From Polyangiaceae bacterium LLY-WYZ-15_(1-7) (lineage in GTDB: Bacteria > Myxococcota_A > Polyangia > Polyangiales > Houyiibacteriaceae), in contig DAPKRU010000126.1 of the NCBI GenBank assembly GCA_031800675.1, forward strand, positions 1 through 27,113: a stretch of 27,113 nucleotides of DNA, read 5' to 3'. Shown here in pieces: positions 4,367 to 16,552 of this stretch. The translations under genes were made by a program, and so were the position numbers. The notes below the pieces were generated by a model that did not search any database, was not told the origin of the DNA, and saw only the letters and a program-made list of their open reading frames with translations. Numbering within the stretch: position 1 is the first letter of the stretch; the number at the start of each line of letters is the position of its first letter.

Positions 4367-4373
4367 ACGCCGA

Positions 4374-4853: not shown

Positions 4854-5203
4854 GCTCGAGGAGGTCGCGCGGGCCGGCGCTTCGCGGAGCGCCCCCGGGC
4901 GATTGTCGAGTGTTTTCGGCCCCGCGAGGCGGACGCCGGGCCGGGCCAGCGAGCTCCGCGGGCGCGGGGCGTGGGGCCCCCGTTGCCCACGTCACACCGG
5001 CCGAGTAGGGTCCCCCCTCGCCCGGCGCCCGACCCGCGCCGGGAGCGAAGAGCGGCAGCTGGGGCGCCGAGGCGCACCGCGAGGAAGACCCAGCCGTGGC
5101 TCGCCCGAGGCGGCCGCGAACGAGAGAAGACATCCACACGACGACCCCGCTGGGGGTCGGCCCCGGGCGAGGGGCGGTCATGCGGGGAAGCGAGTAGGAC
5201 GAG

Positions 5204-5731
5204 ATGGCGCGAGAAGGTCTCAACAAGGTGATCCTCATCGGCAACCTCGGGATGGATCCCGAGGTGCAGTACACCCAGAGCGGCATGGCGCGCATGCGCA
5301 TGCGCCTGGCGACGACCGAGTCCTTCGTGAAGCGCTCGGGCGAGCGCGACGAGAAGACGGAGTGGCACACGGTCATCGTCTGGGGGAAGCGCGCCGAGGC
5401 GCTCGGCAAGTTCCTCCAGAAGGGCCGGACGATCTGCGTCGAGGGCTCGATCGAGTACCGCCAGTGGGAGGATCGCGAGGGCAACAAGCGGAACTCCACG
5501 CAGATCCGCGCGCGCAACATCATCCTCCTCGGCGGCGGAGGCGGCGGCGGGCGCCGTGACGACTTCGGCGGCGGCGGCGGCGACTTCGGCGGCGGTGGCG
5601 GCTACGGCGGCGGCGGCGGTGGTGGCGGCGGCTACGGCGGCGGCGGCGGCGGTGGTGGTGGCGGCGGCGGCGGCGGCGGCTTCGACGACTTCCCTGCCGA
5701 CGACTTCGGCGACGACGACATCCCGTTCTGA
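5204..5731 (+). CDS. ssb: Single-stranded DNA-binding protein
   Basis: MAREGLNKVILIGNLGMDPEVQYT...WHTVIVWGKRAE is an OB fold. It has a long Gly-rich linker encoded by a (GGC/GGT)n tract and the canonical acidic tip DDIPF. Confidence 0.93.
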   Translation: MAREGLNKVILIGNLGMDPEVQYTQSGMARMRMRLATTESFVKRSGERDEKTEWHTVIVWGKRAEALGKFLQKGRTICVEGSIEYRQWEDREGNKRNSTQIRARNIILLGGGGGGGRRDDFGGGGGDFGGGGGYGGGGGGGGGYGGGGGGGGGGGGGGGFDDFPADDFGDDDIPF

Positions 5732-5747: not shown

Positions 5748-6830
5748 ATGAGCGGACGCGCGCGAGCACGGTTCGAAGGCATGCGCCTCGATCCCGAGCT
5801 CGCGCGCGTTCTCGATTGGGGCGAGCCGGGCGTCCTCCTGAGCGGCGGCCCCGACCTCGACGGCTGGGAGACCCCCGCCTTCCGCGCCGTGCGCGTCTCC
5901 TGGACCGCCCTGCGCGTCGTTCGCTGGGGGCCGCGCCGCGTGAAGCTCACCTTCGTCGACCGGCGCATCCGCCAGAGCCGGGAGGTGAAGCCGCCCCGGA
6001 GCGCAGGCGCACGCTGGGCGTCTCACGCCCGGGCCTTCGCCGAGGCGGTCGCCGCTCGGACGGAGGCGGAGCTCTGGGAGGAGCAGGGCCGGGCCTTCGA
6101 GGGCGACTGGGAGGGAGGACCGCGCATCGCGTGGAGGGGCGACGTGCTGCGTCTCCCCGTCGAGCGGGAACGCCACTACCAGACCGTGGTGGGCGAGCTC
6201 CTCAGCGGCTCGGCCCCATGGCCGCATACCGACATCCATTGGCGCGAGGTCGAGCACGCCACGCCTGACGACCTCTGGCCGGTCGTCGCGCTGAGCTGGA
6301 GGGAGCGTGGCCATACGCGCGTCGCCTTTCTCGGCCGCGAGGACGACGCCGACTGGGGCGAGCAGATCGAGGCACTCGTCGCCGAGCTCGAGCAGCGCCG
6401 CCCGGGCTCGGTCCGCCGCATGGGCTGGCTCGCGCGGCCGGACCAGCGCTTCGTGCGCTCCGAGCGCTGGCCGACGGACGCCCGCCCCGAGGGGGGCTAC
6501 CGCACCTCGGCCCGCGCCGAGGAGATCGTCGCCCATCGGGAGCCGACGCGCTTCGGTCGCCTGGCGGACGCCATTCGCCGCTGGATCGCCTCCTCGTCGC
6601 TCCCCGAGCCGGGCCCCGAGCGCACCCGCCTCGCTCCGATCGAGGTCGTCCTCACGGCCACGGACCTCGTCGCCCGGGTCGCGGGCGGCGACGTCTTCCG
6701 CATCCCGCGCGCCGCGCTCGTCCGCCGCGAGGGCGAGCGCTGGCTCTTCGGTCGCCGCGCCTGGCTCTACCTCGACCCCCGCGAGGGCTGCCCGGTCGAG
6801 GCCGCCCTCGAAGCCCAGCTCGCCCGCTGA
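5748..6830 (+). CDS. Hypothetical protein (Trp/Arg-rich)
   Basis: Long ORF with plausible composition. The start was chosen at the first ATG after the ssb stop; the ATG at 5778 is an alternative. No recognisable domain. Confidence 0.5.
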   Translation: MSGRARARFEGMRLDPELARVLDWGEPGVLLSGGPDLDGWETPAFRAVRVSWTALRVVRWGPRRVKLTFVDRRIRQSREVKPPRSAGARWASHARAFAEAVAARTEAELWEEQGRAFEGDWEGGPRIAWRGDVLRLPVERERHYQTVVGELLSGSAPWPHTDIHWREVEHATPDDLWPVVALSWRERGHTRVAFLGREDDADWGEQIEALVAELEQRRPGSVRRMGWLARPDQRFVRSERWPTDARPEGGYRTSARAEEIVAHREPTRFGRLADAIRRWIASSSLPEPGPERTRLAPIEVVLTATDLVARVAGGDVFRIPRAALVRREGERWLFGRRAWLYLDPREGCPVEAALEAQLAR

Positions 6831-6864: not shown

Positions 6865-7761
6865 TCACATGCCGTCGGGCAGCCGGATGCGGTTCAGCAG
6901 CAGCCGGGTCAGGAGCGCCGCCTGCGCGCCCGTCAGCGTGAGCTCGCCGAGGAGCGTGCTCTCTTCGCGCCGTAGGGTGATGCTCTCGAGCGCGCTCGCC
7001 AGCCCCGCGAGCGCGAGCACCGGCATCCGCGCGGCCGCCTCGATGCGCCGCTCGGCCATCGCCTTCGCCCGCTCCGCCTGCTCCGCGTCCGGATACGCAC
7101 CGCGAAAGGAGAGCGCCATGGCCGGCGGCGCCTCGCCCTGCGTCGGCGCCACCCGGAGCCGCGCCTCGAAGCGTTCCGGCATCAGGGAGCTCCGGGCGTA
7201 GCGCCGCCGGGAGGGCTCGGCGCGCAGGGCGGCGAGATCCTCGCCCGGTCGCCAGAAGGCCTCGAGCGTCGCGTCGGGGCGCAGCCAGGGGAGGGCGCCC
7301 GGCGCCACGCTCACGACCCGGTGCGGGTGGTCGGCCCGCGCCAGCGGCGGCTCCCGCCAGCCCGGCACCTCGCGCCAGCCGTCTCCCCGCGCGCCCAGGG
7401 GAGCCATCGCGTCGAGCCCCGGCCGCACGTCGTCGTCGTGCGTCGTCACCATCACCCAGTCCCAGCCGAAGGTGACGAGGGCCACGTAGATCGTCTCCGC
7501 CTCGAAGGGGTCGAGGCGCGGGTCGGCGAGGAGCGCCGCGATGTCCGGGCGCCGCTCGCGGTAGTAGCTCTCGGCCTGCGCGAGGGCCGGCGCGCAGGCC
7601 GGGCTCGCCTCGCAGGCGCTCACGTCGACCCAGAGCCGCGAGCCGAGCTCGGGGGGCGCGGGCCAGGTCTGGGGCAGCGGGGCCGGCGCTGGCGTGCGCA
7701 CGGCCACCGGCGCCACCGGCGGCGGCGCGCTCTCGGCGCTGCCGCCGCAGGCCGCCAGCAT
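6865..7761 (-). CDS. Hypothetical protein, possibly a lipoprotein (start unresolved)
   Basis: Minus ORF 6865..8232. Its upstream part is antisense to tlyA and unlikely to be coding. A signal-peptide-like RRAAALAALMLAACGG segment sits near 7740-7790, but no in-frame ATG or GTG is upstream of it. Confidence 0.35.
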   Translation of the reverse strand: MLAACGGSAESAPPPVAPVAVRTPAPAPLPQTWPAPPELGSRLWVDVSACEASPACAPALAQAESYYRERRPDIAALLADPRLDPFEAETIYVALVTFGWDWVMVTTHDDDVRPGLDAMAPLGARGDGWREVPGWREPPLARADHPHRVVSVAPGALPWLRPDATLEAFWRPGEDLAALRAEPSRRRYARSSLMPERFEARLRVAPTQGEAPPAMALSFRGAYPDAEQAERAKAMAERRIEAAARMPVLALAGLASALESITLRREESTLLGELTLTGAQAALLTRLLLNRIRLPDGM

Positions 7762-7820
7762 CAGCGCGGCGAGCGCCGCGGCCCGGCGACCGACGCGCGA
7801 GCTGCTACGCTCGCGCCGCC

Positions 7821-8565
7821 GATGGCGAAGAAGGTCCGGGCCGACGTCCTCCTGCACGAGCGCGGGCTCGCGCCGAGCCGTTCCCGCGCGCAGGCGCTGA
7901 TCCTCGCCGGCAAGGTCTACGTCGGCGAGCAGCGCGTGGAGAAGGCCGGCGAGCGCCTCGCGTCCGACGTCGAGCTCGTCGTGCGCGGCACCGACAACCC
8001 CTACGTCTCCCGCGGGGGCCTCAAGCTCCAGGGCGCCCTCGACGCCTTCGCCCTCGATCCGGCCGGCCTCGTCGCCGCCGACTTCGGCGCCTCCACCGGC
8101 GGCTTCACCGATTGCCTGCTCCAGCGCGGCGCGGCGAAGGTCTACGCGATCGACGTCGGGTACGGTCAGCTGCATCCGAAGCTCCGGAACGACGCACGCG
8201 TCGTCGTCATGGAGCGTACCAACGCGCGCCACCTGAAGGCCGGCGACCTGCCCGATCCCATCGATCTCGTCGTCATCGACGCCTCCTTCATCTCACTCCG
8301 GAAGCTCCTCCCCGCGGCCGTCGCGCTGCTGCGCCCGGGGGGCGAGGTCGTCGCGATGGTGAAGCCGCAGTTCGAGGTCGGCCGCCGCGAGGTCAGCAAG
8401 ACGAGCGGCGTCGTCCGGGACCCGGCGCTCCGCGCGAAGGCCATCGACGCCGTCGCCGCCGAGGCCGCCGCGCTCGGCCTCGAGGAGGTCGCCCGCGCCG
8501 ACGCGCCCATCAAGGGCCCGAAGGGCAACCACGAAGCCTTCCTGCGTCTCCGCGCACGCGCCTGA
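7821..8565 (+). CDS. tlyA: TlyA-family rRNA 2'-O-methyltransferase (hemolysin A family)
   Basis: MAKKVRADVLLHERGLAPSRSRAQALILAGKV is the S4 domain. FtsJ-like methyltransferase motifs (AADFGASTGGFTDCLLQRGA, VIDASFISL) follow. Confidence 0.85.
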
Positions 8566-8831
8566 CTCCGCCGCGCTTCGAAGGGGGCGACGCCGCGCCG
8601 ACTGCCCGCTCGTGGGGCGCGTGTCGATGGGCGGGCCGGGTGGGCGAGGTCCACCCCACGAAGCGGAGGGAGCCCCCGGCGAGAAGAGCTGGCGCCTGCC
8701 GTTCGCGGAGCGGGACGTCGAGCGGATCCCCGGAGCGGATCGCTGGAGGGACTCCGACCCGCGGCGCGGCGCCTCCCGTCCTCGACCGCCGGGGCGGCCT
8801 CACGCAGCCGGCTCGGCGCCGCGGCGATCGA

Positions 8832-8905
8832 GGTCGGGCGCTGGTTCCGGCGCGTGGATTCGAACCACGATTCGCGGATTCAAAGTCCGCTGTCCTGCCA
8901 TTAGA
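8832..8905 (-). tRNA. tRNA-Gln (anticodon TTG)
   Basis: Acceptor TCCGGCG/CGCCGGA pairs 7/7. T-arm CGTGG-TTCGAAT-CCACG. Anticodon arm GCGGA-CTTTGAA-TCCGC. CCA is encoded. Confidence 0.8.
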
Positions 8906-9043
8906 CGACGCCGGAGAGAGTGGCGCGGCCGGGCCGCGCTCGGATGTCGTGCACATACCACGGGCGCGGCGGCCGAGCCACGAAGGCCCCGCCGCCGGAT
9001 TGCCCCTTTCGCCGCCCGCGCCGCGCGGTATGCTCGGCGCCCC

Positions 9044-9742
9044 ATGGCCACCGCGCGAACGCTCGAGCTCACGGACCCGATCAAGCGCCGCCTGCTGCAC
9101 CTGCGCTACGTGAGCGGCACGAAGACCGACCCGACGCTCGACGCGGCCCTCGTCGAGGACGTCGAGAAGACCCTCGGCCTGAAGCTCGGCGACAACCTGC
9201 TCGCGCTCCTCGCGAACGGCGACGTCGCCCTCGAGGGCTTCGACGTGCGCCTGCAGAACGTCGTCTCGCTGACCAAGGAGCTCCACGCGAGCGGCGGCCC
9301 GCGCGGCATGGTCGGCCTCGGGCGCGACCCGGGCGGCGACGTGCTCGTGGCGGCGCCCCTCGGCGGGAAGGGTGTCGCCTTCTTCGACACGCGCGACCGC
9401 TCGATCGACGCCGTGCCTCTCGAGGCGTGGCTCGACGAGCTGGTGGGCACGCAGCTCGAGCAGCTCCGCGAGGACGAGTCGGACGACAAGGCGCGCGCGT
9501 TCAAGTCCGTGCACGACGAGGACCTCGGGGGCTTCCGGCCGGCGCTCGTCGTGGACGAGACGCCCGCCAAGCGGGTCTCGCACCCGAAGTTCGGCGGCGG
9601 CGCGATCCTGCGCGAGCTGGACGGCGGCGCGAAGCTCGAGGTGCGCTTCGACGACGGATCGAAGCGCACGCTGCTCGCGCGCTTCCTCACCCGCCAGGGC
9701 GGCGGGGAGGAACCTTCGGGGGACGCGGGCGCGGAGGCCTGA
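9044..9742 (+). CDS. Hypothetical protein with a C-terminal UvrD-C/DUF3553-like motif and a possible SMI1/KNR4 (SUKH)-like N-region
   Basis: The C-terminus HPKFGGGAILRELDGGAKLEVRFDDGSKRTLLARFL resembles the helicase C-terminal Tudor-like motif. The N-terminus has a VEKTLGLKLGDNLLALLANGD stretch reminiscent of SUKH immunity proteins. It is the only plus-strand gene inside the tRNA array. Confidence 0.5.
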   Translation: MATARTLELTDPIKRRLLHLRYVSGTKTDPTLDAALVEDVEKTLGLKLGDNLLALLANGDVALEGFDVRLQNVVSLTKELHASGGPRGMVGLGRDPGGDVLVAAPLGGKGVAFFDTRDRSIDAVPLEAWLDELVGTQLEQLREDESDDKARAFKSVHDEDLGGFRPALVVDETPAKRVSHPKFGGGAILRELDGGAKLEVRFDDGSKRTLLARFLTRQGGGEEPSGDAGAEA

Positions 9743-9912
9743 GGAGGCCGGCGAGGAAGCTCGAGCGTGGAGGCTCGGCGCCGCCTCGCCCCGGCGGACG
9801 TGCCGGCCGCCGCCCTGTTCGAGAGCGGGAGGGCCGGAGCAGGTCGACCGAGCGGGCAGCCCGAGCGTGTCTGCTCCATGAGGCGCGGCGAGCCCGGACG
9901 GTTCGCGCGGCG

Positions 9913-9986
9913 TGGTGCGAGAAGCGGGACTCGAACCCACATCTTCGGCGTGGCGCACCGGTGTCCTGCCGTTGGACGATTCTCGC
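9913..9986 (-). tRNA. tRNA-Gly-like (anticodon GCC), non-canonical anticodon loop
   Basis: Acceptor GCGAGAA/TTCTCGC 7/7. T-arm GTGGG-TTCGAGT-CCCGC. Anticodon loop GCGCCAC has C at position 33 and a 27:43 C-A mismatch. CCA is encoded. Confidence 0.5.
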
Positions 9987-10016
9987 GGAGGCGCGGCCCG
10001 GAGCGCGGGCCGCGGG

Positions 10017-10088
10017 AGCGACGAGCGGGAGTCGAACCCACATCTCCGACATGGCCAGCCGGTGTCTTGTCCATTGGACGATCGTCGC
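10017..10088 (-). tRNA. tRNA-Gly-like (anticodon GCC), non-canonical anticodon loop
   Basis: Acceptor GCGACGA/TCGTCGC 7/7. T-arm GTGGG-TTCGACT-CCCGC. Anticodon arm CCGGC-TGGCCAT-GTCGG with G at position 33. Confidence 0.5.
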
Positions 10089-10184
10089 AGACGCGCCTCC
10101 GAAGAGGCGCGGTGCCTCGCCTCCCCCCGCGGGTGCGAGGAGGGGCGCGGCGTGGCCGCTGGAGCAGCCGGGAGGAACGACGAG

Positions 10185-11015
10185 TCAGCGCTCGTCTTCC
10201 AGGAGCTCGAGGTCCTTCAGGCCGACCACGAAGCGCCCGCCGGAGCGGGCCATGGTCGCGAGGGTCTCGAGCTGGCGAAGCTTCAGCAGGGCCGGGTGCG
10301 CGGCGAGGGCCTCGGCCTGCTCGACCTCGGCCCGGAGCGCGACGCGCTGGCGTTCCAGCTCGGCCGCCGAGCGCTCCTTCTCCGCCTCGAGCTCGAGGTG
10401 GAGCCGCTCGCGCTCGGCCTCGAGGCGACGCCGCTGCGCCTCCTCGTCGGCCCGGGCGGCCAGCTTGCGGGCCTCGATGTCCTTGCGCTGCTGGATGAGC
10501 TTCGCCTCCGCGCGGCGCTCGGTCTCGAGGACCTGGTTCATGATCGTCTTGAGGTTCCCCGGGAAGACGAGATCCTTCACGTCCGCCCGGTGGATCTCGA
10601 CGCCGTAGCCCTGCGCCGCGTCCTTGACGGTCTCGCGGACCGCGTCCGAGATCTCGTTGCGGTCGCTGAGGATCGCGTCGAGGTCGCGGCTCGCGAGGAA
10701 GCGGCGCGCAGCGAGCTGCACGTCCTCGTAGATGCGCGCCTCGTAGTCGGCGACGTGGTGCTTGGCGGCGACCGGGTCGACGACCTCGAAGTAGACGAGG
10801 AGCGAGACGCGGATCGCGACCTTGTCGCGGGTCAGGATCTCCTGGCCCTTGATGACGAGGGAGCGCTCGCGGAGGTCGACGAGGTCGACGCGGCGGACCT
10901 TGCGGTCGAAGAGGCCGCCGCCCAGGGGATGGCGGCCGGGGGGGAGGGCGTCCTCGTAGACGCCGTCCACGTAGAGGAGCCCGACGTGGGCGTTCGGAAC
11001 GACGAAGTGCGACAT
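10185..11015 (-). CDS. SPFH/band-7 (stomatin/prohibitin-like) domain protein
   Basis: Start MSHFVVPNAHVGLLYVDGVY (cat at 11013-11015) is preceded by a GGAGGTG RBS. The SPFH core is ILTRDKVAIRVSLLVYFEVVDP. The C-terminus is a coiled coil rich in E/R/A. Confidence 0.8.
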   Translation of the reverse strand: MSHFVVPNAHVGLLYVDGVYEDALPPGRHPLGGGLFDRKVRRVDLVDLRERSLVIKGQEILTRDKVAIRVSLLVYFEVVDPVAAKHHVADYEARIYEDVQLAARRFLASRDLDAILSDRNEISDAVRETVKDAAQGYGVEIHRADVKDLVFPGNLKTIMNQVLETERRAEAKLIQQRKDIEARKLAARADEEAQRRRLEAERERLHLELEAEKERSAAELERQRVALRAEVEQAEALAAHPALLKLRQLETLATMARSGGRFVVGLKDLELLEDER

Positions 11016-11191
11016 GGTGCACCTCCTGGGGAAAGGGGTGGAAAGGGAGGCCGAGCGCCTACGCAGTGGCAAGACGTAGAACGGGGAGCTCCGGCGGGAC
11101 GCGCCGGAGGGGCCGGACCAGTACGAGTGGCCTGATCTCTTGGAAGGAGAGACTCGCTCCGGCCCCGCTACTTCCATGGGGCGCTCGGCGG

Positions 11192-11262
11192 TGCGGTGAG
11201 GGGGAATCGAACCCCCGTCTCCAGGATGGGACTCTGGTGTCGTGCCGTTGGACCATCACCGC
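11192..11262 (-). tRNA. tRNA-Gly (anticodon CCC)
   Basis: Acceptor GCGGTGA/TCACCGC 7/7. T-arm GGGGG-TTCGATT-CCCCC. Anticodon loop GTCCCAT with a 31:39 mismatch. Confidence 0.6.
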
Positions 11263-11351
11263 AGGCGGGGTGCCCCGGAGGCGGGTGCACCCCTCATCGC
11301 TCCTCCGCACGAGCTCCGGTGCCGCCCACCGAAGGAAACAGAGGACCGGGG

Positions 11352-11381
11352 TCGCGACGCCGTCGTCAGCAGAGGCGTCGC
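11352..11381 (-). terminator. GC-rich hairpin (9-bp stem CGCGACGCC/GGCGTCGCG) immediately 3' of tRNA-Ser(GCT); possible terminator or processing structure
   Basis: Read directly. On the minus strand it is followed by tcctctgtttcctt. Confidence 0.3.
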
Positions 11382-11385
11382 GCCG

Positions 11386-11471
11386 GCGGAGAACGGAGGT
11401 CTCGAACCCCACACCCACGCGGGTGCGCACGGTTTAGCAAACCGGCCTGGCCGCCCGGCCAGTTCGTTCTC
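11386..11471 (-). tRNA. tRNA-Ser (anticodon GCT), type II (long variable arm)
   Basis: Acceptor GGAGAAC/GTTCTCC 7/7. T-arm TGGGG-TTCGAGA-CCTCC. Anticodon loop TTGCTAA. Variable-arm helix CACCC-GCGT-GGGTG. Confidence 0.65.
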
Positions 11472-11514
11472 CAGAGGCCTCGAGGGAGGCCGAGGCGCGC
11501 CCGAAGGCGCACCG

Positions 11515-11606
11515 GCACGCCGGCCAGGAATCGAACCCGACTCACCGGATTTGGAATCCGAGCTGCTCCCAGAGCACCGACGTATGAGCTCCCGAGCGAC
11601 CCGGCG
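11515..11606 (-). tRNA. tRNA-Trp-like (anticodon CCA), atypically long (92 nt) with about 20 extra nt between the acceptor and anticodon arms
   Basis: Acceptor ACGCCGG/CCGGCGT 7/7. T-arm TCGGG-TTCGATT-CCTGG. Anticodon arm TCGGA-TTCCAAA-TCCGG. The D-region is 39 nt instead of about 19. Confidence 0.4.
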
Positions 11607-11755
11607 TCGTTCGACGGGGCCGTCGTGATCGTCTCGAGCGACGCGAGCGCCTGCGCCCGCGCCGGCCCTCGTGGACCGCCCCCACGCTCTCGTTCGAAGA
11701 GCGTGCGAGCGAAGCGAGGGCGAGGGGGAGAGCGGCCCCTCCATGAACGCGGCGG

Positions 11756-11842
11756 CGGAGAGCAGAGGACTCGCACCCCACGCCCGCGAAGGCGCGCACC
11801 GCTTTCGAGGCGGGCTCGGTGGCCTGCACCGATTTGCTCTCC
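11756..11842 (-). tRNA. tRNA-Ser-like (anticodon CGA), type II, with a non-canonical T-loop TGCGAGT
   Basis: Acceptor GGAGAGC/GCTCTCC 7/7. Anticodon arm CCGC-CTCGAAA-GCGG. The T-loop has G at position 55, so it may be a pseudogene. It shares architecture with the Ser(GCT) tRNA at 11386-11471. Confidence 0.45.
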
Positions 11843-11850
11843 AGGGTCGG

Positions 11851-11934
11851 CGGAAGCGAGAGGACTCGAACCCCACGCCCATGGGCGCGCATCCGCTTCC
11901 AACGGAGCCTGGTCCCCCGACCAGCTTCGCTTCC
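11851..11934 (-). tRNA. tRNA-Ser (anticodon GGA), type II
   Basis: Acceptor GGAAGCG/CGCTTCC 7/7. T-loop TTCGAGT. Anticodon loop TTGGAAG. Variable-arm helix CGCCC-AT-GGGCG. Confidence 0.65.
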
Positions 11935-11959
11935 ATCGATCGCGCTCCGCAGAGCGCGG

Positions 11960-12031
11960 TCGGGGTGGCAGGAGTCGAACCTGCACCTTCCCGGCCCCCA
12001 GCCGGGCGTCTTCCCCCAAGACTTCACCCCG
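11960..12031 (-). tRNA. tRNA-Pro (anticodon GGG)
   Basis: Acceptor CGGGGTG/CACCCCG 7/7. D-stem GTCT/AGAC. Anticodon arm CCCGG-CTGGGGG-CCGGG with G37. T-arm GCAGG-TTCGACT-CCTGC. Confidence 0.75.
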
Positions 12032-12185
12032 AGGGCTCCGCCGGCGCCGGCGGAGGGGCGTCACCCGCTGGGCGACGCGAAGAAAGGACCGGGAGGGAGG
12101 CGCGCGTTCCCGCGGCGTTCGTTGGCGCGCCCCCCTCCCGGAGGGCCCGCGCCGGGACCATTCCCGACGCGGAAGGCGCTCCCCA

Positions 12186-12704
12186 TCAGGCGAGCGCCGA
12201 GGTCCAGGACATCCACGTCCGCCAGTGCTGCGGGATGTGCGAGACGTCGAGGTGCAGCGTGCCCCCGGGCAGCCACTTCGGCCGACGCGGCGCCTTGCGG
12301 AGCGGCATCTTCGCCTGCTGCGGCGTCCGGTCCGCCTTCCGCTCGTTGCAGCGGCGGCACGCGGTCACGATGTTCTCCCACGTCGTGGTGCCGCCCTGGG
12401 CGCGCGGCAGGACGTGGTCGTACGTCAGGTCACGCATCGGCAGCTTCTCGCCGCAGTACTGGCAGCTGAAGCCGTCCCGCAGGAAGACGTTCAGGCGCGA
12501 GAACTTGATGCGGTGCTGGCGGAAGCGGTTCCCCTGGCGGAGGCGCACGACGGCGGGCATGCGCATCGCGAGGCTGACGGAACGGATGACGTCCTCGTAC
12601 TCCTCCACGACGTCGGCCTTGCCCACGTACAGGAGCGTGACGGCCTTCTGCCAGGGGACGATTTGGTGCGGTTGGTAGCCTTGGTCGAGAACGAGCGTGC
12701 GCAT
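12186..12704 (-). CDS. HNH endonuclease embedded in the tRNA array
   Basis: HNH motif: DHVLPRAQGGTTTWENIVTACRRCNERKADR with upstream Cys pair CQYCGEKL. Start MRTLVLDQGYQ (cat at 12702-12704) is preceded by an AGGAGAT RBS. Confidence 0.8.
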   Translation of the reverse strand: MRTLVLDQGYQPHQIVPWQKAVTLLYVGKADVVEEYEDVIRSVSLAMRMPAVVRLRQGNRFRQHRIKFSRLNVFLRDGFSCQYCGEKLPMRDLTYDHVLPRAQGGTTTWENIVTACRRCNERKADRTPQQAKMPLRKAPRRPKWLPGGTLHLDVSHIPQHWRTWMSWTSALA

Positions 12705-12796
12705 GGCGAGATCTCCTGCGTGCCTGCGGCACGCGGTGGTGGACGAGACGGGTCGCCCCCGCGAAGGGGGACCCGCTGGCCGACCATTCGGCCGAG

Positions 12797-12826
12797 CGAC
12801 GCGCGGCGATCTCGTGCGCGTCGCGG
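12797..12826 (-). terminator. Perfect 9-bp inverted repeat GCGACGCGC...GCGCGTCGC abutting the 3' end of tRNA-Glu(CTC) and upstream of the HNH gene
   Basis: Read directly. Function unknown (terminator, processing or regulatory). Confidence 0.3.
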
Positions 12827-12899
12827 CGACGGATACGGGACTCGAACCCGTGTTTCCTGGCTGAGAACCAAGCGTCCTGGGCCACTAGACGAATCCGTC
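12827..12899 (-). tRNA. tRNA-Glu (anticodon CTC)
   Basis: Acceptor GACGGAT/ATCCGTC 7/7. Anticodon arm CTTGG-TTCTCAG-CCAGG. T-arm ACGGG-TTCGAGT-CCCGT. Confidence 0.7.
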
Positions 12900-12921
12900 G
12901 GGAGGCGGCTCGCGCCGCCGG

Positions 12922-13004
12922 TACCAGGGACAGGAGTCGAACCTGCATGCCTCGAGGGGCCACACGACCTCAGCGTGCTGCGTTTACCGTTTCGCCACCC
13001 TGGC
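12922..13004 (-). tRNA. tRNA-Leu (anticodon GAG), type II
   Basis: Acceptor GCCAGGG/CCCTGGT (G1-U72). Anticodon arm GCACG-CTGAGGT-CGTGT. Long variable arm CCTC-GAGG. T-arm GCAGG-TTCGACT-CCTGT. Confidence 0.65.
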
Positions 13005-13063
13005 GTGGCACGCCCGGTCGGGGCGCGTGTTCGTTCGCGGCGCAGAGCGCGCCGCCGCGTCGG

Positions 13064-13136
13064 TACGGGATCAGGGGATCGAACCCTGCTCCTCCGCCTC
13101 GTCATGGCGGCGTCGTCCCCAGACGACTCATCCCGT
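13064..13136 (-). tRNA. tRNA-Val (anticodon GAC)
   Basis: Acceptor ACGGGAT/ATCCCGT 7/7. D-stem GTCG/CGAC. Anticodon arm CCGCC-ATGACGA-GGCGG. T-arm CAGGG-TTCGATC-CCCTG. Position 8 is G. Confidence 0.7.
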
Positions 13137-13284
13137 GTGATCCGCGCCGGAGCTCGCCTCCGACGGGGGAGGGGCGAAGCTCAGCCCCGAGCGAGCGGTC
13201 CGAGAGCGGGAAGAGGAGGGCGGCCCGGTGTCTGCGGGCGCGCCCGTGGCGAGCGATGGCGCCGTGTCGTGCGAAGCGACCGCG

Positions 13285-13438
13285 CCCGCATCTGCCCGCT
13301 CGGCCCGGCCTCGCAGGCCGCGCTCGCCCGGACTCGAAGAACGGGGAGGCGCGTGCGAGCGAAGCGAGCGCGAGGGAGGGGGACCCGGCGGAGCTCGCCT
13401 CCGACGGGGGAGGGGCGAAGCTCAGCCCCTCCCATCAA
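13285..13438. repeat. Roughly 150-bp segmental repeat, copy 1 (GCCCGCATCTGCCCGCTCGGCC...GAGCTCGCCTCCGACGGGGGAGGGGCGAAGCTCAGCCCCTCC)
   Basis: Near-identical copy at 13775-13928. The 40-bp 3' core hairpin element GGAGCTCGCCTCCGACGGGGGAGGGGCGAAGCTCAGCCCC also occurs at 13149-13189. Confidence 0.75.
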
Positions 13439-13444
13439 TACCGG

Positions 13445-13526
13445 TACCGGAGACAGGAGTCGAACCTGCATGCCTCGAGGGCCACGCGTTCTGAGCGCGC
13501 TACGTATACCGTTCCGCCACTCCGGT
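13445..13526 (-). tRNA. tRNA-Leu (anticodon CAG), type II
   Basis: Acceptor ACCGGAG/CTCCGGT 7/7. Anticodon arm GCGCG-CTCAGAA-CGCGT. Paralogous to Leu(GAG), sharing the same D and T arms. Confidence 0.7.
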
Positions 13527-13549
13527 GCATGGACGGCCGAAGCCGTCGG

Positions 13550-13621
13550 CGACGCGTACGGGAATCGAACCCGTCTCACCCCGGAGACAACGGGGCTGCA
13601 TACCCAGATGCACAACGCGCC
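13550..13621 (-). tRNA. tRNA-Asp (anticodon GTC)
   Basis: Acceptor GGCGCGT/ACGCGTC (one G-U). D-stem TGCA/TGCA. Anticodon arm CCCCG-TTGTCTC-CGGGG. T-arm ACGGG-TTCGATT-CCCGT. Confidence 0.75.
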
Positions 13622-13650
13622 ATGATCGATGAGCTCGCTCGCGCGAGCGG

Positions 13651-13730
13651 TGCTGGAGGCAGGAGTCGAACCTGCACGCCCGAGGGCCACGTGGTTTGAG
13701 CACGCTGCGTCTCCCGTTCCGCCACTCCAG
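13651..13730 (-). tRNA. tRNA-Leu (anticodon CAA), type II
   Basis: Acceptor GCTGGAG/CTCCAGC 7/7. Anticodon loop CTCAAAC. Long variable arm. T-arm GCAGG-TTCGACT-CCTGC. Confidence 0.7.
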
Positions 13731-13774
13731 CGCCGAGCCGCCGCGGACCGCGTCGTCGCCACCGGGGCTCGGGC

Positions 13775-13928
13775 GGCCGCCCCCGCATCTGCCCGCTCGG
13801 CCCGCCTCGCAGGCCGCGTTCGCCCGGACTCGAAGAACGGGGTGGTGCGTGCGAGCGAAGCGAGCGCGAGGGAGGGGGACCCGTCGGAGCTCGCCTCCGA
13901 CGGGGGAGGGGCGAAGCTCAGCCCCTCC
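13775..13928. repeat. Roughly 150-bp segmental repeat, copy 2
   Basis: Aligns with 13285-13438 with a few substitutions. Confidence 0.75.
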
Positions 13929-13938
13929 AAGAACGCCG

Positions 13939-13986
13939 CGCCACGTGGTTTGAGCACGCTGCGTCTCCCGTTCCGCCACTCCAGCG
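13939..13986 (-). pseudogene. Truncated tRNA-Leu(CAA) fragment: the 5' half (acceptor through anticodon arm and part of the variable arm) is duplicated without the T-arm or 3' acceptor
   Basis: ccacgtggtttgagcacgctgcgtctcccgttccgccactccagcgcc is identical to 13688-13733. Its downstream flank gccgagccgccgcggaccgcgtcgtcgccacc is also duplicated. Confidence 0.7.
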
Positions 13987-14089
13987 CCGAGCCGCCGCGG
14001 ACCGCGTCGTCGCCACCTGGGCTCGGGGGCTCCGGCTCGCAGACGGACCGGCTGCTTCCGCGAAGGTCGGCGCCTGGGCGTCGACCTCG

Positions 14090-14162
14090 GTACGGGGCCA
14101 GGGAATCGAACCCTGCTCGTCCGCCTCGTGACGGCGGCGTCGTCCCCAGACGACTCGCCCCG
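14090..14162 (-). tRNA. tRNA-Val (anticodon CAC)
   Basis: Acceptor GCGGGGC/GCCCCGT (G1-U72). Anticodon arm CCGCC-GTCACGA-GGCGG. Paralogous to Val(GAC). Confidence 0.7.
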
Positions 14163-14163
14163 C

Positions 14164-14233
14164 ATGGCTGCGGAGAGACTCGAACTCTCGCGGCCGCCCG
14201 TATGAGAGGCGTCGGCCGTCCTCGGCCCGCAGC
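14164..14233 (-). tRNA. tRNA-Met (anticodon CAT), short (70 nt) with a compact D-arm
   Basis: Acceptor GGCTGCG/CGCAGCC 7/7. Anticodon arm CGCCT-CTCATAC-GGGCG. T-arm GAGAG-TTCGAGT-CTCTC. Separated from the previous tRNA by 1 nt. Confidence 0.55.
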
Positions 14234-14269
14234 CGTTCGTGATGGCGGGTCGCCGCGAAGCGACCGCCG

Positions 14270-14342
14270 GCGCTTCCGCCAGGATTCGAACCTGGAACTC
14301 GGGTTTCGTAGACCCGCGTGATGATCCGTTTCACCACGGAAG
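14270..14342 (-). tRNA. tRNA-Arg (anticodon ACG)
   Basis: Acceptor GCTTCCG/CGGAAGC 7/7. D-stem GTGA/TCAC. Anticodon arm CGGGT-CTACGAA-ACCCG. T-arm CCAGG-TTCGAAT-CCTGG. Confidence 0.75.
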
Positions 14343-14435
14343 CAGGCGCCGCCCGCGGGCGGCACGAAGAGTGGGCGAGGGCGAGCGCACGGCACCGCGC
14401 GCCGAACGCGCGGGCGGTGATCGTCTCCTCGCCGG

Positions 14436-14503
14436 AGTGCCGAGTGGGAGTCGAACCCACCTTCGCCGGGTTGCAGCCGGCGGCGTTCCCAGAACACCGG
14501 CAC
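14436..14503 (-). tRNA. tRNA-Cys (anticodon GCA), compact (68 nt)
   Basis: Acceptor GTGCCGG/TCGGCAC (one G-U). Anticodon arm GCCGG-CTGCAAC-CCGGC. T-arm GTGGG-TTCGACT-CCCAC. Very short D-arm. Confidence 0.55.
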
Positions 14504-14510
14504 GCGATGG

Positions 14511-14582
14511 CGCTCCCCCCAGGGCTCGAACCTGGAACGCGGGCTCCGCACGCCCGAGTGATTCCGCTTTCACCAGAGAAGC
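14511..14582 (-). tRNA. tRNA-Arg (anticodon GCG)
   Basis: Acceptor GCTTCTC/GGGGAGC (two G-U). D-stem GTGA/TCAC. Anticodon arm CGGGC-GTGCGGA-GCCCG. T-arm CCAGG-TTCGAGC-CCTGG. Confidence 0.55.
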
Positions 14583-14644
14583 ATCGGCACCCTCGCTCCG
14601 ACTCGGCCGGATGGAGAGCGCACGCGAAGGCGCCGAAGCGCCGG

Positions 14645-14718
14645 TCCGTGTGGACGGATTCGAACCGCCGGCCTCCCCGACCCGAACGGGGCGCTCCTCC
14701 AGCCTGAGCTACACACGG
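14645..14718 (-). tRNA. tRNA-Pro (anticodon CGG)
   Basis: Acceptor CCGTGTG/CACACGG 7/7. D-stem GCTC/GAGC. Anticodon arm CCCCG-TTCGGGT-CGGGG. T-arm GGCGG-TTCGAAT-CCGTC. Confidence 0.75.
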
Positions 14719-14780
14719 AGGATCTCTCTCGAGCGCGGCGCCGAAGCTCCGCCATGAAGAAGCGGAGCCGAGCTCCGCGG

Positions 14781-14851
14781 CACTCCCGCCACGATTCGAA
14801 CGTGGACTTCAGGCTCCGGAAACCTGCGTGATTCCCTTTCACTACGGGAGC
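14781..14851 (-). tRNA. tRNA-Arg (anticodon CCG)
   Basis: Acceptor GCTCCCG/CGGGAGT (G1-U72). D-stem GTGA/TCAC. Anticodon arm CAGGT-TTCCGGA-GCCTG. T-arm CCACG-TTCGAAT-CGTGG. Confidence 0.7.
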
Positions 14852-14855
14852 GTGG

Positions 14856-14930
14856 TGACGCGTGGGGGATTCGAACCCCCGCCTCCCCGGCTGAAAACCG
14901 GGTGTCCTGGTGCCGCTAGACGAACGCGCC
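14856..14930 (-). tRNA. tRNA-Glu (anticodon TTC)
   Basis: Acceptor GGCGCGT/ACGCGTC. Anticodon arm CCCGG-TTTTCAG-CCGGG. T-arm GGGGG-TTCGAAT-CCCCC. Confidence 0.7.
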
Positions 14931-14942
14931 GGAATCGTCTGG

Positions 14943-15014
14943 AGCCCATGCCGGGACTCGCACCCGGCTCTCCGCCTTACGAGGGCGGCGCGTCGCTACC
15001 TACGCTTCGAGGGC
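14943..15014 (-). tRNA. tRNA-Thr-like (anticodon CGT), possible pseudogene
   Basis: Anticodon arm CCGCC-CTCGTAA-GGCGG. The T-loop is TGCGAGT (non-canonical). The acceptor GCCCTCG/CATGGGC has two adjacent mismatches. Paralog of the Thr(GGT) tRNA at 15138-15209. Confidence 0.4.
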
Positions 15015-15137
15015 AGGAGCGCGTCTTCCGACCCCGAAGCCCCCGCCGGAGCGGAGCCGCGGAGCCGGAAGGCGCGCTGGGAGAGGTCGGCGCCCCTCCC
15101 GCGGGAACGAACAACGAACGACAACTCGAGAGATGGA

Positions 15138-15209
15138 GCCCCCGCCGGGAATCGAACCCGGCTCTCCGCCTTACCGGGGCGGTGCGTCGCCGACTACGCA
15201 TCGTGGGCA
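15138..15209 (-). tRNA. tRNA-Thr (anticodon GGT), C at position 33
   Basis: Acceptor GCCCACG/CGGGGGC (one mismatch). D-stem GCGT/ACGC. Anticodon arm CCGCC-CCGGTAA-GGCGG. T-arm CCGGG-TTCGATT-CCCGG. Confidence 0.55.
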
Positions 15210-15236
15210 TGGCGCGGCGCCGGGCGCCGTCGCGGT

Positions 15237-15308
15237 GGAGATGGCGGGAATCGAACCCGCGGCCTCAGCCGTGCCATGGCTGCGCTCTCCCCCTGAGCTA
15301 CATCCCCT
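15237..15308 (-). tRNA. tRNA-Ala (anticodon GGC)
   Basis: Acceptor GGGGATG/CATCTCC with G3-U70 (Ala identity pair). D-stem GCTC/GAGC. Anticodon arm CAGCC-ATGGCAC-GGCTG. T-arm GCGGG-TTCGATT-CCCGC. Confidence 0.75.
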
Positions 15309-15336
15309 CTCGAACGCGCCCCGTTCGGCGCGCGGT

Positions 15337-15409
15337 GGAACCGGCGGGACTCGAACCCGCAGTCTCCGGCTTGCGACACCGGCGCCCTCCCCGTTGGGCC
15401 ACGATCCCT
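15337..15409 (-). tRNA. tRNA-Ala (anticodon CGC)
   Basis: Acceptor GGGATCG/CGGTTCC with G3-U70. D-stem GCCC/GGGC. Anticodon arm CCGGT-GTCGCAA-GCCGG. T-arm GCGGG-TTCGAGT-CCCGC. Confidence 0.7.
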
Positions 15410-15438
15410 CGCGAACGCTCCCCTCGCGGGGCGCGCGG

Positions 15439-15510
15439 TCCACTCGGGAAGAATCGAACTTCCGTTTCCCGCGTATCAGACGGGCGTCTTCACCATTGGA
15501 CGACGAGTGG
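15439..15510 (-). tRNA. tRNA-Ile (anticodon GAT)
   Basis: Acceptor CCACTCG/CGAGTGG 7/7. Anticodon arm CCCGT-CTGATAC-GCGGG. T-arm GGAAG-TTCGATT-CTTCC. Confidence 0.7.
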
Positions 15511-15514
15511 GTGG

Positions 15515-15586
15515 CGCCGCGTACGGGAATCGAACCCGTCTCACTCCGTAGACAGCGGAGCTGGTACGCCAGCTTCATCACGCGGC
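15515..15586 (-). tRNA. tRNA-Asp (anticodon GTC), second divergent copy
   Basis: Acceptor GCCGCGT/ACGCGGC 7/7. Anticodon arm CTCCG-CTGTCTA-CGGAG. T-arm ACGGG-TTCGATT-CCCGT. The D-region is unusual. Confidence 0.6.
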
Positions 15587-15633
15587 AGCGTCGGGCGGGC
15601 GGTGCGAGGCCTTCAGCCCCTCCGCCCACGCGG

Positions 15634-15706
15634 TGGCTCGAGCAGGGATCGAACCTGCACCTTCCGGGCTTCAACCGGACGCGCTCACCAGATGCGCTTT
15701 CGAGCC
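15634..15706 (-). tRNA. tRNA-Phe (anticodon GAA)
   Basis: Acceptor GGCTCGA/TCGAGCC 7/7. D-stem GCGC/GCGC. Anticodon arm TCCGG-TTGAAGC-CCGGA. T-arm GCAGG-TTCGATC-CCTGC. Confidence 0.75.
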
Positions 15707-15733
15707 GTCGCGGCGACCGGAGTCGCCGCCCGG

Positions 15734-15804
15734 CGGGGAGGTGCGGAGTCGAACCGCAACAACCCCGGTTAACGGCCGGGGCGCTCTCCCTGAGCTACCT
15801 CCCC
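15734..15804 (-). tRNA. tRNA-Asn (anticodon GTT), C at position 33
   Basis: Acceptor GGGGAGG/CCTCCCC 7/7. D-stem GCTC/GAGC. Anticodon arm CCCGG-CCGTTAA-CCGGG. T-arm TGCGG-TTCGACT-CCGCA. Confidence 0.6.
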
Positions 15805-15853
15805 ACGCACCGGGCTCCCGGTGCGCGCGCTCGCTCCGCGGAGCGAGCCGTGG

Positions 15854-15926
15854 GGTGACCGGGGGGAATCGAACCCCGACGCCGACTCGGGTCACGGCCG
15901 AGCGGACAGACCTCTGCGCGGTCACC
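15854..15926 (-). tRNA. tRNA-His (anticodon GTG) with encoded G-1 and C73; C at position 33
   Basis: Acceptor GTGACCG/CGGTCAC 7/7, plus an extra 5' G opposite discriminator C (His identity). Anticodon arm CTCGG-CCGTGAC-CCGAG. T-arm CGGGG-TTCGATT-CCCCC. Confidence 0.65.
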
Positions 15927-16082
15927 ACGTCGCAGGCCGCCGAGCCGAGCTCGAAGACCTGCTCTCCGGCGCCCCAGCTCGTCTGCGAGCCGAAGCGCCG
16001 GAGTGACGTGAGGCGGGCGCGACACCGCCCCACGTCCCCCGATTGTCAAAGACCTCCCGCCACCCCCGCTGGGGTGACGCGG

Positions 16083-16154
16083 TACCGGACCAGGGAGTCG
16101 AACCCCGACCTCGTGGTTCAGAGCCACGCGTCCTCGCCGTTGGACCAGTCCGGT
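16083..16154 (-). tRNA. tRNA-Gln (anticodon CTG)
   Basis: Acceptor ACCGGAC/GTCCGGT 7/7. Anticodon arm CGTGG-CTCTGAA-CCACG. T-arm CGGGG-TTCGACT-CCCTG. Confidence 0.75.
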
Positions 16155-16247
16155 GTGTTCTCGAAAGAGCGATGGGAGCCGGGGGCTCCCGGGAGCGGGC
16201 GCAGGGCGCACCTCTCCCGTCGCGTCGCGAGCGGGTCGCGGCGCCGG

Positions 16248-16318
16248 TAGGGCACCAGGGGGTCGAACCCTGATCGACCGGTTAAGAGCCGGCTGCTCTG
16301 CCGTTGAGCTAGTGCCCC
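16248..16318 (-). tRNA. tRNA-Lys (anticodon CTT)
   Basis: Acceptor GGGGCAC/GTGCCCT (G1-U72). D-stem GCTC/GAGC. Anticodon arm GCCGG-CTCTTAA-CCGGT. T-arm CAGGG-TTCGACC-CCCTG. Confidence 0.75.
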
Positions 16319-16409
16319 GTGCCGAGGCCGGGCCTCGGTCTCGTCGTTCGCTCGCGCTCCCCCCACTGGGTCGTCGGAGAACGGGGTCCTCGGAGGGAGC
16401 TCTCGCGGT

Positions 16410-16489
16410 CGGGCAGGAAGGAATCGAACCTCGTGGGCAGAGCCCCGGCGACTTTACAGGCCGCCTGCCGGCCACCGGCGCCTACCCGG
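16410..16489 (-). tRNA. tRNA-Tyr (anticodon GTA), type II
   Basis: Acceptor CGGGTAG/CTGCCCG (one G-U). Anticodon arm GCGGC-CTGTAAA-GTCGC. Long variable arm GGGC-TCT-GCCC. T-arm CGAGG-TTCGATT-CCTTC. Confidence 0.6.
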
Positions 16490-16524
16490 GCGGGGACGGA
16501 AACGAAGACGGGCCACCTGCGCTG

Positions 16525-16552
16525 ACGCAGGCGGCCCGTAAAAGGAGCACGA
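16525..16552 (-). terminator. 12-bp GC hairpin (one A-C mismatch) followed on the minus strand by TCTTCGTTTCC, just upstream of the first array tRNA (Tyr)
   Basis: gggccacctgcg-ctga-cgcaggcggccc read directly. Could be a weak terminator or a processing or insulator structure. Confidence 0.3.

Follow-up and report, generated by a model that had tools for sequence, protein, structure and literature searches.

Recurrent departures from conserved tRNA positions in a chromosomal tRNA gene array of a Polyangiaceae bacterium

Positions 1 to 27,113 of contig DAPKRU010000126.1 of Polyangiaceae bacterium LLY-WYZ-15_(1-7) (GenBank assembly GCA_031800675.1), referred to below as the window, carry a dense array of tRNA genes in which several members depart from otherwise fixed nucleotides. 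U33, U8 and the contact between G18 and Psi55 (pseudouridine at position 55) are textbook invariants of tRNA, and substitutions at each of these positions are found in the array.

Array anatomy and deviant genes

The array comprises 33 tRNA or tRNA-like genes, all on the minus strand, between positions 9913 and 16488 (6.6 kb, approximately 5 genes per kb). Thirty-one were called by ARAGORN and two are weaker. On the window as a whole ARAGORN reports 32 tRNA genes, which all lie at 8842-16488 on the minus strand, a count that includes a flanking tRNA-Gln; a permissive Rfam scan yields two further weak tRNA-like genes (11757-11842 and 15854-15926). Counts out of 34 genes given below refer to the 32 ARAGORN genes together with these two, a Ser-CGA-like and a His-like gene. 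The array anticodons number 29 different ones, cover all 20 amino acids and nearly all carry G or C at position 34; the GC content of the window is 72%. The array is free of tandem repeats and thus not periodic. Protein genes mark the window as bacterial chromosome: rpsL, rpsG, fusA and the start of tuf occupy 23.5-27.1 kb, and this str operon (rpsL-rpsG-fusA) lies approximately 7 kb from the array. The deviant genes, followed by the protein and tRNA genes that accompany the array, are listed here.

9913..9986, minus strand: tRNA-Gly(GCC), loop GC-GCC-AC with G32, C33 and C38 (G32/C38 can pair), CCA encoded (ARAGORN; Rfam 50.7 bits)
10015..10088, minus strand: tRNA-Gly(GCC) paralog, loop TG-GCC-AT with G33, all stems paired (ARAGORN; Rfam 46.4 bits)
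11757..11842, minus strand: Ser(CGA)-like tRNA, T-loop TGCGAGT (G55), D-loop AG instead of GG, A8 (direct reading; Rfam tRNA-Sec model 36 bits)
11849-11934, minus strand: Ser-GGA, A8
11958-12031, minus strand: Pro-GGG, A8 and U14
13062-13136, minus strand: Val-GAC, G8
13548..13621, minus strand: tRNA-Asp(GTC), U37 (ARAGORN)
14089-14163, minus strand: Val-CAC, G8
14165-14234, minus strand: Met-CAT, G8
14940..15014, minus strand: tRNA-Thr(CGT), T-loop TGCGAGT (G55), D-loop AGGTAGCG (A18-G19), A8 (ARAGORN; Rfam 41.7 bits)
15134..15208, minus strand: tRNA-Thr(GGT), loop CC-GGT-AA with C33, A8 (ARAGORN, Infernal; Rfam 46.5 bits)
15512..15586, minus strand: tRNA-Asp(GTC), second copy, U37 and G8 (ARAGORN)
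15632-15706, minus strand: Phe-GAA, A8
15732..15804, minus strand: tRNA-Asn(GTT), loop CC-GTT-AA with C33, G73, all stems paired (ARAGORN, Infernal; Rfam 52.2 bits)
15851..15926 (G-1 at 15926), minus strand: His(GTG)-like tRNA, loop CC-GTG-AC with C33, C8, G-1:C73, CCA encoded, weak D-arm (lowered-threshold ARAGORN; Rfam 28 bits)
16407-16488, minus strand: Tyr-GTA, G8
8842..8915, minus strand: tRNA-Gln(TTG), canonical (U8, U33, CCA), probably a housekeeping gene flanking the array (Rfam 64 bits; adjoins FtsJ/TlyA in the related contigs L009, L010 and L013)
10185..11177, minus strand: slipin/SPFH (Band 7) gene inside the array (Pfam; same synteny in L009, L011 and L013)
12186..12704, minus strand: HNH endonuclease (HNH_5) inside the array, the conserved partner gene of long tRNA arrays (Pfam)

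An initial annotation, made from the letters alone, had read C33 in the anticodon loops of Gly, Thr-GGT, Asn-GTT and His, G33 (loop TGGCCAT) in the second Gly gene, and the T-loop TGCGAGT in Thr-CGT and the Ser-CGA-like gene. All of these readings hold. ARAGORN reproduces the C33 loops on the minus strand (His at the lowered threshold), the G33 loop and the Thr-CGT T-loop, and direct reading of the Ser-CGA-like gene, a paralog of the adjacent Ser(GGA) at 11849-11934, returns the same T-loop. Independently, Asn and Thr-GGT, when aligned to the Rfam model with Infernal, both have C in the column for U33, at a high posterior probability. The annotation had also considered that a shifted stem register might restore U33. 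Alternative anticodon registers were inspected by eye and with Infernal, and none with a 7-nt loop does so; the four anticodon stems of both Gly-GCC genes, Thr-GGT and Asn-GTT contain 4-5 bp each. The minimum free energy (MFE) fold of the first Gly-GCC gene closes the G32:C38 pair, and that of the His-like gene is a cloverleaf with an acceptor of 8 bp.

Substitutions at position 8 are common, as the annotation had remarked: 12/34 genes lack U8 (A or G in 10/32 ARAGORN genes, C in the His-like and A in the Ser-CGA-like gene). Seven window genes carry a purine at position 32. At the 3' end, 31/32 genes show N73-C-C, and the next base is G in 23 (CCG) and A in only 7 (CCA). On related contigs 39 non-array tRNAs are available for comparison, with U33 in 39/39, U55 in 39/39 and U8 in 38/39. 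Compared to this control, which is small and not phylogenetically independent, the window differs at position 33 (Fisher, p=0.019) and at position 8 (p=0.0004).

Position 37 is normally a purine; the U37 of Asp(GTC) is kept across three related arrays (window, L009 at 6346-6418 and L011 at 3628-3703). CCG ends are also frequent in related arrays (L009, L011, L015, L076, L104), where CCC and CCT are rare. The array Tyr gene (16407-16488) combines C1:G72 with a long variable arm; 14/16 array Tyr genes carry the bacterial G1:C72.

Homologous arrays and conservation of the substitutions

The nearest relative of the locus is found on contig L009, and L011 and L013 are further related Myxococcota contigs; the locus is syntenic in all three. 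The order shared by these relatives runs from a chorismate-binding gene over a tRNA array (Tyr-Lys-Gln and onwards), the HNH gene and Trp, Ser and Gly tRNA genes to slipin, Gln(TTG) and FtsJ/TlyA. HNH proteins of the window, L009, L011 and L013 share 79-80% identity, and slipin homologs with 72% identity occur in other Myxococcota contigs, including one 9.07 Mb genome. A tblastn search with the window HNH protein leads to the HNH gene upstream of the trn operon on plasmid pCC7120delta of Anabaena sp. PCC 7120 (35% identity, 92% coverage, E 8e-24). Scans with the HNH protein further returned arrays on 14 metagenome contigs (14-41 tRNAs), on eight IMG/VR contigs (30-46 tRNAs) and on an Acidiphilium multivorum plasmid (37 tRNAs); the combination of HNH and tRNA genes is also present in the isolated phages Myxococcus phage Mx1, Tunturi_5 and PA5oct. 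Modules of HNH gene and array are thus patchily spread over metagenome contigs (51-72% GC), IMG/VR records, Acidiphilium and Nostoc plasmids, and phages. The module spreads by horizontal transfer, and in this marine Myxococcota lineage it has been kept at one locus.

Long arrays of tRNA genes (L-arrays), with the Anabaena trn operon as type example, have been described as lacking periodicity, spreading horizontally and being supernumerary, as having a conserved HNH gene and genes for translation or RNA repair close by, and as induced by translational stress (Santamaria-Gomez et al. 2021, PMC8421152). The size criterion applied here was a minimum of 20 tRNA genes, at 2 or more per kb, in one orientation and with short intergenic distances; the window array exceeds it in number and density, although two protein genes interrupt the series. 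A canonical tRNA-Trp gene lies near secE on the same metagenome-assembled genome (MAG) contig (L004), outside the array; together with the flanking Gln gene, it indicates that the array exists in addition to housekeeping genes, at least to some of them. Because its tRNA genes are dense, same-strand and non-periodic, include a homologous HNH gene, are extra to the housekeeping Trp gene and lie in conserved synteny, we class the window array, on sequence grounds, as a chromosomal L-array and a previously undescribed member of this group.

We surveyed 709 unique tRNAs from 28 homologous arrays (the window and 27 others). At position 33 these carry U in 648 cases, C in 57 (8%), G in 3 and A in 1. 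C33 is concentrated in particular isoacceptors: Val-GAC (13/15 arrays, including the Acidiphilium plasmid), Thr-GGT (7/16), Glu-CTC (6/20), Gly-GCC (5/22) and Val-TAC (4/17). Leu-GAG with C33 accounts for five ARAGORN calls in three unique arrays. One and the same Gly loop, GCGCCAC, is found in the window, L009 (twice), L013 and L015, and the acceptor stems of these genes differ with compensation. Thr-GGT and Asn-GTT, on the other hand, have U33 rather than C33 in the nearest relatives L009 and L011 (C33 of Asn is common to L015), and the G33 of the Gly-GCC gene at 10015-10088 was not seen in related arrays. The shared C33 of Gly and Val, set against the unshared C33 of Thr and Asn and the unique G33, points to deviations of mixed age, some old and some recent. 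Across the arrays the non-U33 fraction climbs with GC content (Spearman 0.49, p=0.008).

That nearly all position-33 deviations are C (57/61) would also fit a scheme in which C33 is edited to U (or Psi) after transcription, such that the mature tRNAs are canonical. C-to-Psi editing is known in bacteria at position 32 of Vibrio tRNA-Tyr (TrcP). We know of no editing at position 33 in bacteria, however, and no deaminase gene was found in the window, nor was one noticed in the array neighbourhoods examined. The C33 tRNA-Leu of yeast moreover works unedited (PMC13492127). Editing is consequently an extremely improbable explanation.

Position 55 is U or G across the arrays, except for 2 cases of C. 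Here the substitution is tied to a second one in the D-loop, which lacks GG in 10/13 tRNAs with G55 against 6/771 with U55 (Fisher 1e-16); two more of the 13 carry the D-loop AGGTAGCG, in which the aligned positions 18-19 are AG. We interpret this as tertiary covariation, with A18-G55 predicted to replace G18-Psi55 in a compensated elbow. The pair is found repeatedly: Thr, Val, Pro, Arg, Leu and Glu genes carry it, among them Glu-CTC of Anabaena, and the L009 ortholog of the window Thr-CGT gene has the same G55/A18 along with four compensated stem changes. G55/A18 sites outside the window are L009 3779-3852; L016 5083-5155 and 8264-8337; L035 5799-5871 and 9619-9693; L075 9543-9737; and L094 3332-3409. 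For position 8 we observe an enrichment of A8-U14 (12/96 against 16/547), to be read with the caveat that D-arm numbering is unreliable.

No report of a conserved C33 in array Val-GAC, Thr-GGT, Gly-GCC or Glu-CTC, or of the A18-G55 swap, was found in the literature library at hand, which is incomplete. The inherited and recurrent C33 in particular isoacceptors, the A18-G55 swap, the frequent loss of U8 and the CCG ends seem to be undescribed.

Two genes in related arrays are more aberrant. L011 7033-7105 has a TTA anticodon (ochre-suppressor-like), C33 and six unpaired stem positions (ARAGORN), and L009 2741-2810 combines a 6-nt anticodon loop with G55; both may be pseudogenes or unusual decoders.

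Working tRNAs and the alternatives

The structure of the deviant genes was compared on 465 unique tRNAs from 20 arrays (42 non-U33, 423 U33). Acceptor, anticodon and T stems are paired at 98.0% of positions in non-U33 genes, 98.0% in U33 genes and 96.8% in non-U8 genes. RNAalifold recovers the cloverleaf from seven C33 Val-GAC genes, with compensatory double changes in 13/21 pairs, and the Gly-GCC family shows such changes in 10/22 pairs. Identity elements are kept as well: G3:U70 is present in 53/54 Ala tRNAs against 4/698 others, and His G-1:C73, Cys U73, the G73 of Asn, Asp and Trp, and Pro C1:G72 with A73 are all retained. Finally, the codons that dominate for each amino acid, one or two of them and ending in C or G, have a Watson-Crick cognate in the array, and the set can read 97% of the 5494 codons in the genes of the window (chief gaps AGC and AGG).

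The reading that we prefer, at a probability of roughly 60%, is that these are working supernumerary backup tRNAs whose variants are tolerated or compensated under relaxed fine-tuning and GC pressure. Transcription of the array would run on the minus strand, followed by processing. As most genes encode CCG, the CCA-adding enzyme would complete the 3' ends, the CCG ends being trimmed and A76 added. The tRNAs would be charged by host synthetases and decode the C- and G-ending codons of the host, probably for the most part when translation is under stress, as in Anabaena. C33 would retain a pyrimidine at the anticodon-loop turn; A18 would compensate G55, standing in for the G18-Psi55 elbow contact; and loss of U8 would be the least constrained deviation. 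Purifying selection would act on fold, identity and decoding, fine kinetic optimisation would be relaxed and GC mutation pressure would drive U to C. Mild substitutions might then fix, and stronger ones might survive when compensated, as for A18-G55. The excess of CCG over CCA ends (A76 to G in 23/32 genes) suggests that GC pressure also operates at the 3' end. As a by-product, affected tRNAs would lack s4U8, Psi55 or Gm18. Since bacterial TGT requires U33-G34-U35, the C33 tRNAs for Asn and His would not receive queuosine either. Precedents are available: the natural C33 of Saccharomyces cerevisiae tRNA-Leu(GAG) is nearly neutral with a minimal functional effect (PMC13492127), and 23/26 tRNAs of the Anabaena array carry amino acids and occur on polysomes under stress, with 3/26 genes of that array being pseudogenes (PMC8421152).

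The array family repeatedly swaps textbook invariants within well-formed, identity-preserving tRNAs, which makes it a source of natural test cases for the roles of these positions and a concrete handle on the purpose of long arrays, whether they serve as backup decoders, for resistance to toxins or as decoys. In annotation, a low covariance-model score within such an array is no reason to call a pseudogene.

A number of observations weigh against backup decoding. Covariance-model scores had been proposed as a check. On the Rfam tRNA model the deviant genes reach 42-52 bits (64 for the flanking Gln, 58-63 for other non-array tRNAs), 12/34 genes stay below 29 bits and thereby below the Rfam tRNA gathering score, and the array Trp gene obtains 28.8 bits against 61.8 bits for housekeeping Trp. 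Only two housekeeping tRNAs serve for such comparison, and the isoacceptor comparison of loops is confined to Trp. Neither the low-GC Anabaena array (0/24) nor two isolated phages have C33, which fits GC pressure and equally fits lineage-specific selection. There is also an excess of C33 together with G34 (28/42 against 130/423, p=9e-6, not phylogenetically corrected). We dropped this C33-G34 link as evidence, given that a few long-lived families drive the signal and no strong G34 bias appears by isoacceptor family. The long conservation of C33 in particular isoacceptors nevertheless suggests more than near-neutral drift. In addition, the conserved Gly-GCC loop can close G32:C38 to leave a 5-nt loop that looks poor for decoding, and G33 lowers decoding in Candida tRNA-Ser, at least as this work is cited in PMC13492127.

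One alternative is decay, the deviant genes being dead copies in a silent array. The low-scoring genes just mentioned agree with it, as do the loss of A76 in most genes, the private G33 of the second Gly-GCC gene, and the Ser-CGA-like gene, which has no ARAGORN call and an MFE fold that is not a cloverleaf; the pseudogenes of the Anabaena array are a precedent (PMC8421152). Decay does not account, however, for stems that are as well paired as in canonical members, for the plentiful compensatory changes and the A18-G55 covariation, or for the restriction of the deviations to C33 and G55. Identity elements are strictly retained, anticodons are co-adapted to host codon usage, and arrays of 51-72% GC in different hosts keep the same variants. 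The initial annotation had preferred function to decay, and we arrive at the same preference on the basis of pairing, compensation, A18-G55, identity elements and codon-matched anticodons, which lead us to reject pseudogene decay for most genes. As a general explanation it is very unlikely; it may apply to single genes, namely the Ser-CGA-like one and perhaps the Gly copy with G33.

Another possibility is that the deviations are themselves selected. C33, purine-32, U37, non-U8 and A18-G55 might make the array tRNAs poor substrates for tRNA-targeting toxins or host modification enzymes. Such an insulated set would evade anticodon nucleases, as the initial annotation had suggested, along with ADP-ribosyltransferases and HEPN RNases, and translation could continue while the housekeeping pool is attacked. 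The company of the module in phages and IMG/VR contigs is suggestive, as RtcB, the CCA-adding enzyme, Ro60/TROVE and peptidyl-tRNA hydrolase (Pth) form a typical counter-tRNase repertoire. Loops deviate at 32, 33, 37 and 38, with the seven purine-32 and two U37 genes of the window as examples, and C33 is long conserved in specific isoacceptors. From other systems it is documented that phages evade defence by means of tRNAs (PMC10264068, PMC11555353), and mycobacterial arrays have already been termed putative antidefence elements (PMC12803027). Experiments on gamma-toxin cut both ways: a purine at position 32 abolishes cleavage, but U33C leaves it unchanged (PMC2275089). Moreover, stress cleavage in Anabaena hit the array tRNAs only and spared the housekeeping tRNAs (PMC8421152). 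In the window, the Trp anticodon loop is identical in the array and housekeeping copies, and no tRNase or defence gene is found among the window genes with Pfam and PADLOC (the latter returned only generic matches to a kinase domain and an HNH motif). The array is here a stable chromosomal locus rather than a phage, and the frequency of C33 follows GC content. Taken together, we consider an insulated tRNA set doubtful.

It might be argued in a stronger form that L-arrays are a deliberately re-wired, modification-independent tRNA set (C33, A18-G55, non-U8, CCG ends), invisible to enzymes and toxins keyed to universal nucleotides and travelling with a dedicated HNH nuclease. If true, these tRNAs would escape TGT, ThiI, TruB, TrmH and U33-dependent anticodon nucleases, and the HNH-linked module could swap or protect the tRNA pool of a cell or phage during tRNA-directed attack. 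We regard this version as decidedly unlikely.

The cleavage pattern in Anabaena has also been taken in the opposite direction. As only array tRNAs were seen to be cleaved, a sponge role was proposed (PMC8421152), in which array tRNAs act as bait for stress-induced RNases or tRNA-binding factors and the deviant nucleotides tune substrate quality. Redundancy with housekeeping genes would suit a decoy. A complete codon-matched anticodon set and strict identity elements would then be needless, however, and in Anabaena the tRNAs of the array are charged and located on polysomes (PMC8421152), so that we give this explanation little chance as well.

Known systems, the HNH family and neighbouring genes

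Compared to known systems, the Anabaena trn operon is alike in its dozens of same-strand, non-periodic and redundant tRNA genes, the linked homologous HNH gene, the nearby translation and RNA-repair genes and a patchy spread over phyla, plasmids and phages. Members without U8 and one tRNA with A18/G55 are present in it as well. Different from Anabaena, the window array lies on a chromosome next to the str operon, with synteny in related Myxococcota and the HNH gene inside the array; its anticodons are reduced to G34/C34 (which fits 72% GC), its ends are mostly CCG, and C33 is present. Array units of Mycobacterium (Morgado & Vicente 2018, PMC5966550; giant linear plasmids of M. avium, PMC12803027) hold at least approximately 30 tRNA genes and one conserved embedded HNH gene. 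Their anticodons are redundant with the chromosome, the tRNAs differ structurally from housekeeping ones and an antidefence role has been suggested; the likeness to the window array is one by description. They reside on plasmids and phages, whereas the window array occupies a conserved chromosomal site. No reports of C33 or A18-G55 in Mycobacterium arrays were found.

Phage tRNA clusters (mycobacteriophage C1 cluster, T5; PMC10264068, PMC11555353) are likewise large sets with anticodon-loop differences. The window array, in contrast, lies in a bacterial chromosome, and U33 is not among the positions discussed in one of these papers. Among single genes, the closest cases are yeast tRNA-Leu(GAG) with C33 and Candida tRNA-Ser(CAG) with G33 (PMC13492127). 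The yeast Leu case resembles the arrays in that C33 stands beside G34 in a dispensable, Watson-Crick-matching isoacceptor. These are eukaryotic single genes, though, whereas array C33 spans many isoacceptors of one bacterial gene family.

DNA-level array searches against phage and plasmid records gave single tRNA or HNH fragments only, the scan of genome contigs with the slipin protein gave just one irrelevant archaeal match, and PDB and NCBIfam searches with the HNH protein gave only generic HNH/IscB/Cas9 matches. Where HNH homologs (53-56% identity; L030, L031, L034, L037, L038, L040, L047 and others) stand outside arrays, a canonical tRNA-Arg(CCT) gene is still only some hundred bases away, often with tRNA-Pro(GGG) a few kb off. 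The HNH family seems to be always tRNA-linked.

In phages and IMG/VR contigs, the module neighbours Ro60/TROVE, Pth, CCA-adding enzyme and RtcB-type ligase make up an RNA repair and quality-control set. Their coordinates are as follows.

L098: 13270-14937
L099: 12297-14036
Mx1 (L109): 3870-5519 and 6314-6574
Tunturi_5 (L110): 2964-4412 and 13591-14772

Two related arrays contain translation genes of their own, namely an EF-G paralog inside the L011 array (7205-9298) and a 148-aa RF-1-domain protein, ribosome-rescue hydrolase-like, inside the L009 array (8069-8515).

Around the window array lie two Ser/Thr kinases, a chorismate-binding enzyme, SSB, an HD_4 hydrolase and a TlyA methyltransferase. 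The HD_4 hydrolase (3770-4366) is of the stand-alone RelA/SpoT type (small alarmone hydrolase-like) and TlyA (7822-8565) is an rRNA 2'-O-methyltransferase; both are at most 6 kb from the array, which fits the translation-related neighbourhood described for L-arrays. At the other end, 20 nt upstream of Tyr, the first array gene, a 14-bp GC-rich hairpin followed by CTTCGTTTCC is present on the minus strand (16508-16539). It resembles a terminator and would shield the array from an upstream open reading frame of 88 aa. A promoter scan gave no sigma-70-like site.

Exact protein matches to the window come from two marine MAGs and Tara Oceans assemblies. Contig PABA01000203.1 equals the window except for a spacer duplication of approximately 160 bp (window 13778-13939) that this contig lacks. 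Between the window and the population contigs L001-L006 identity is 99.9-100% and no tRNA polymorphism is seen, so that these contigs are uninformative on selection. The population is nevertheless structurally polymorphic, in the spacer duplication and in a tRNA-Pro gene. A duplicated tRNA-Pro(CGG) gene, the copies differing by one base, is seen in L002 (6596-6789) and L003 (584-777). MAG contigs L004 and L005 are identical up to tuf and then diverge, with rpmG-tRNA-Trp-secE-nusG in the former and rpsJ-rplD in the latter (12999-14189), likely the result of an assembly join at duplicated tuf genes.

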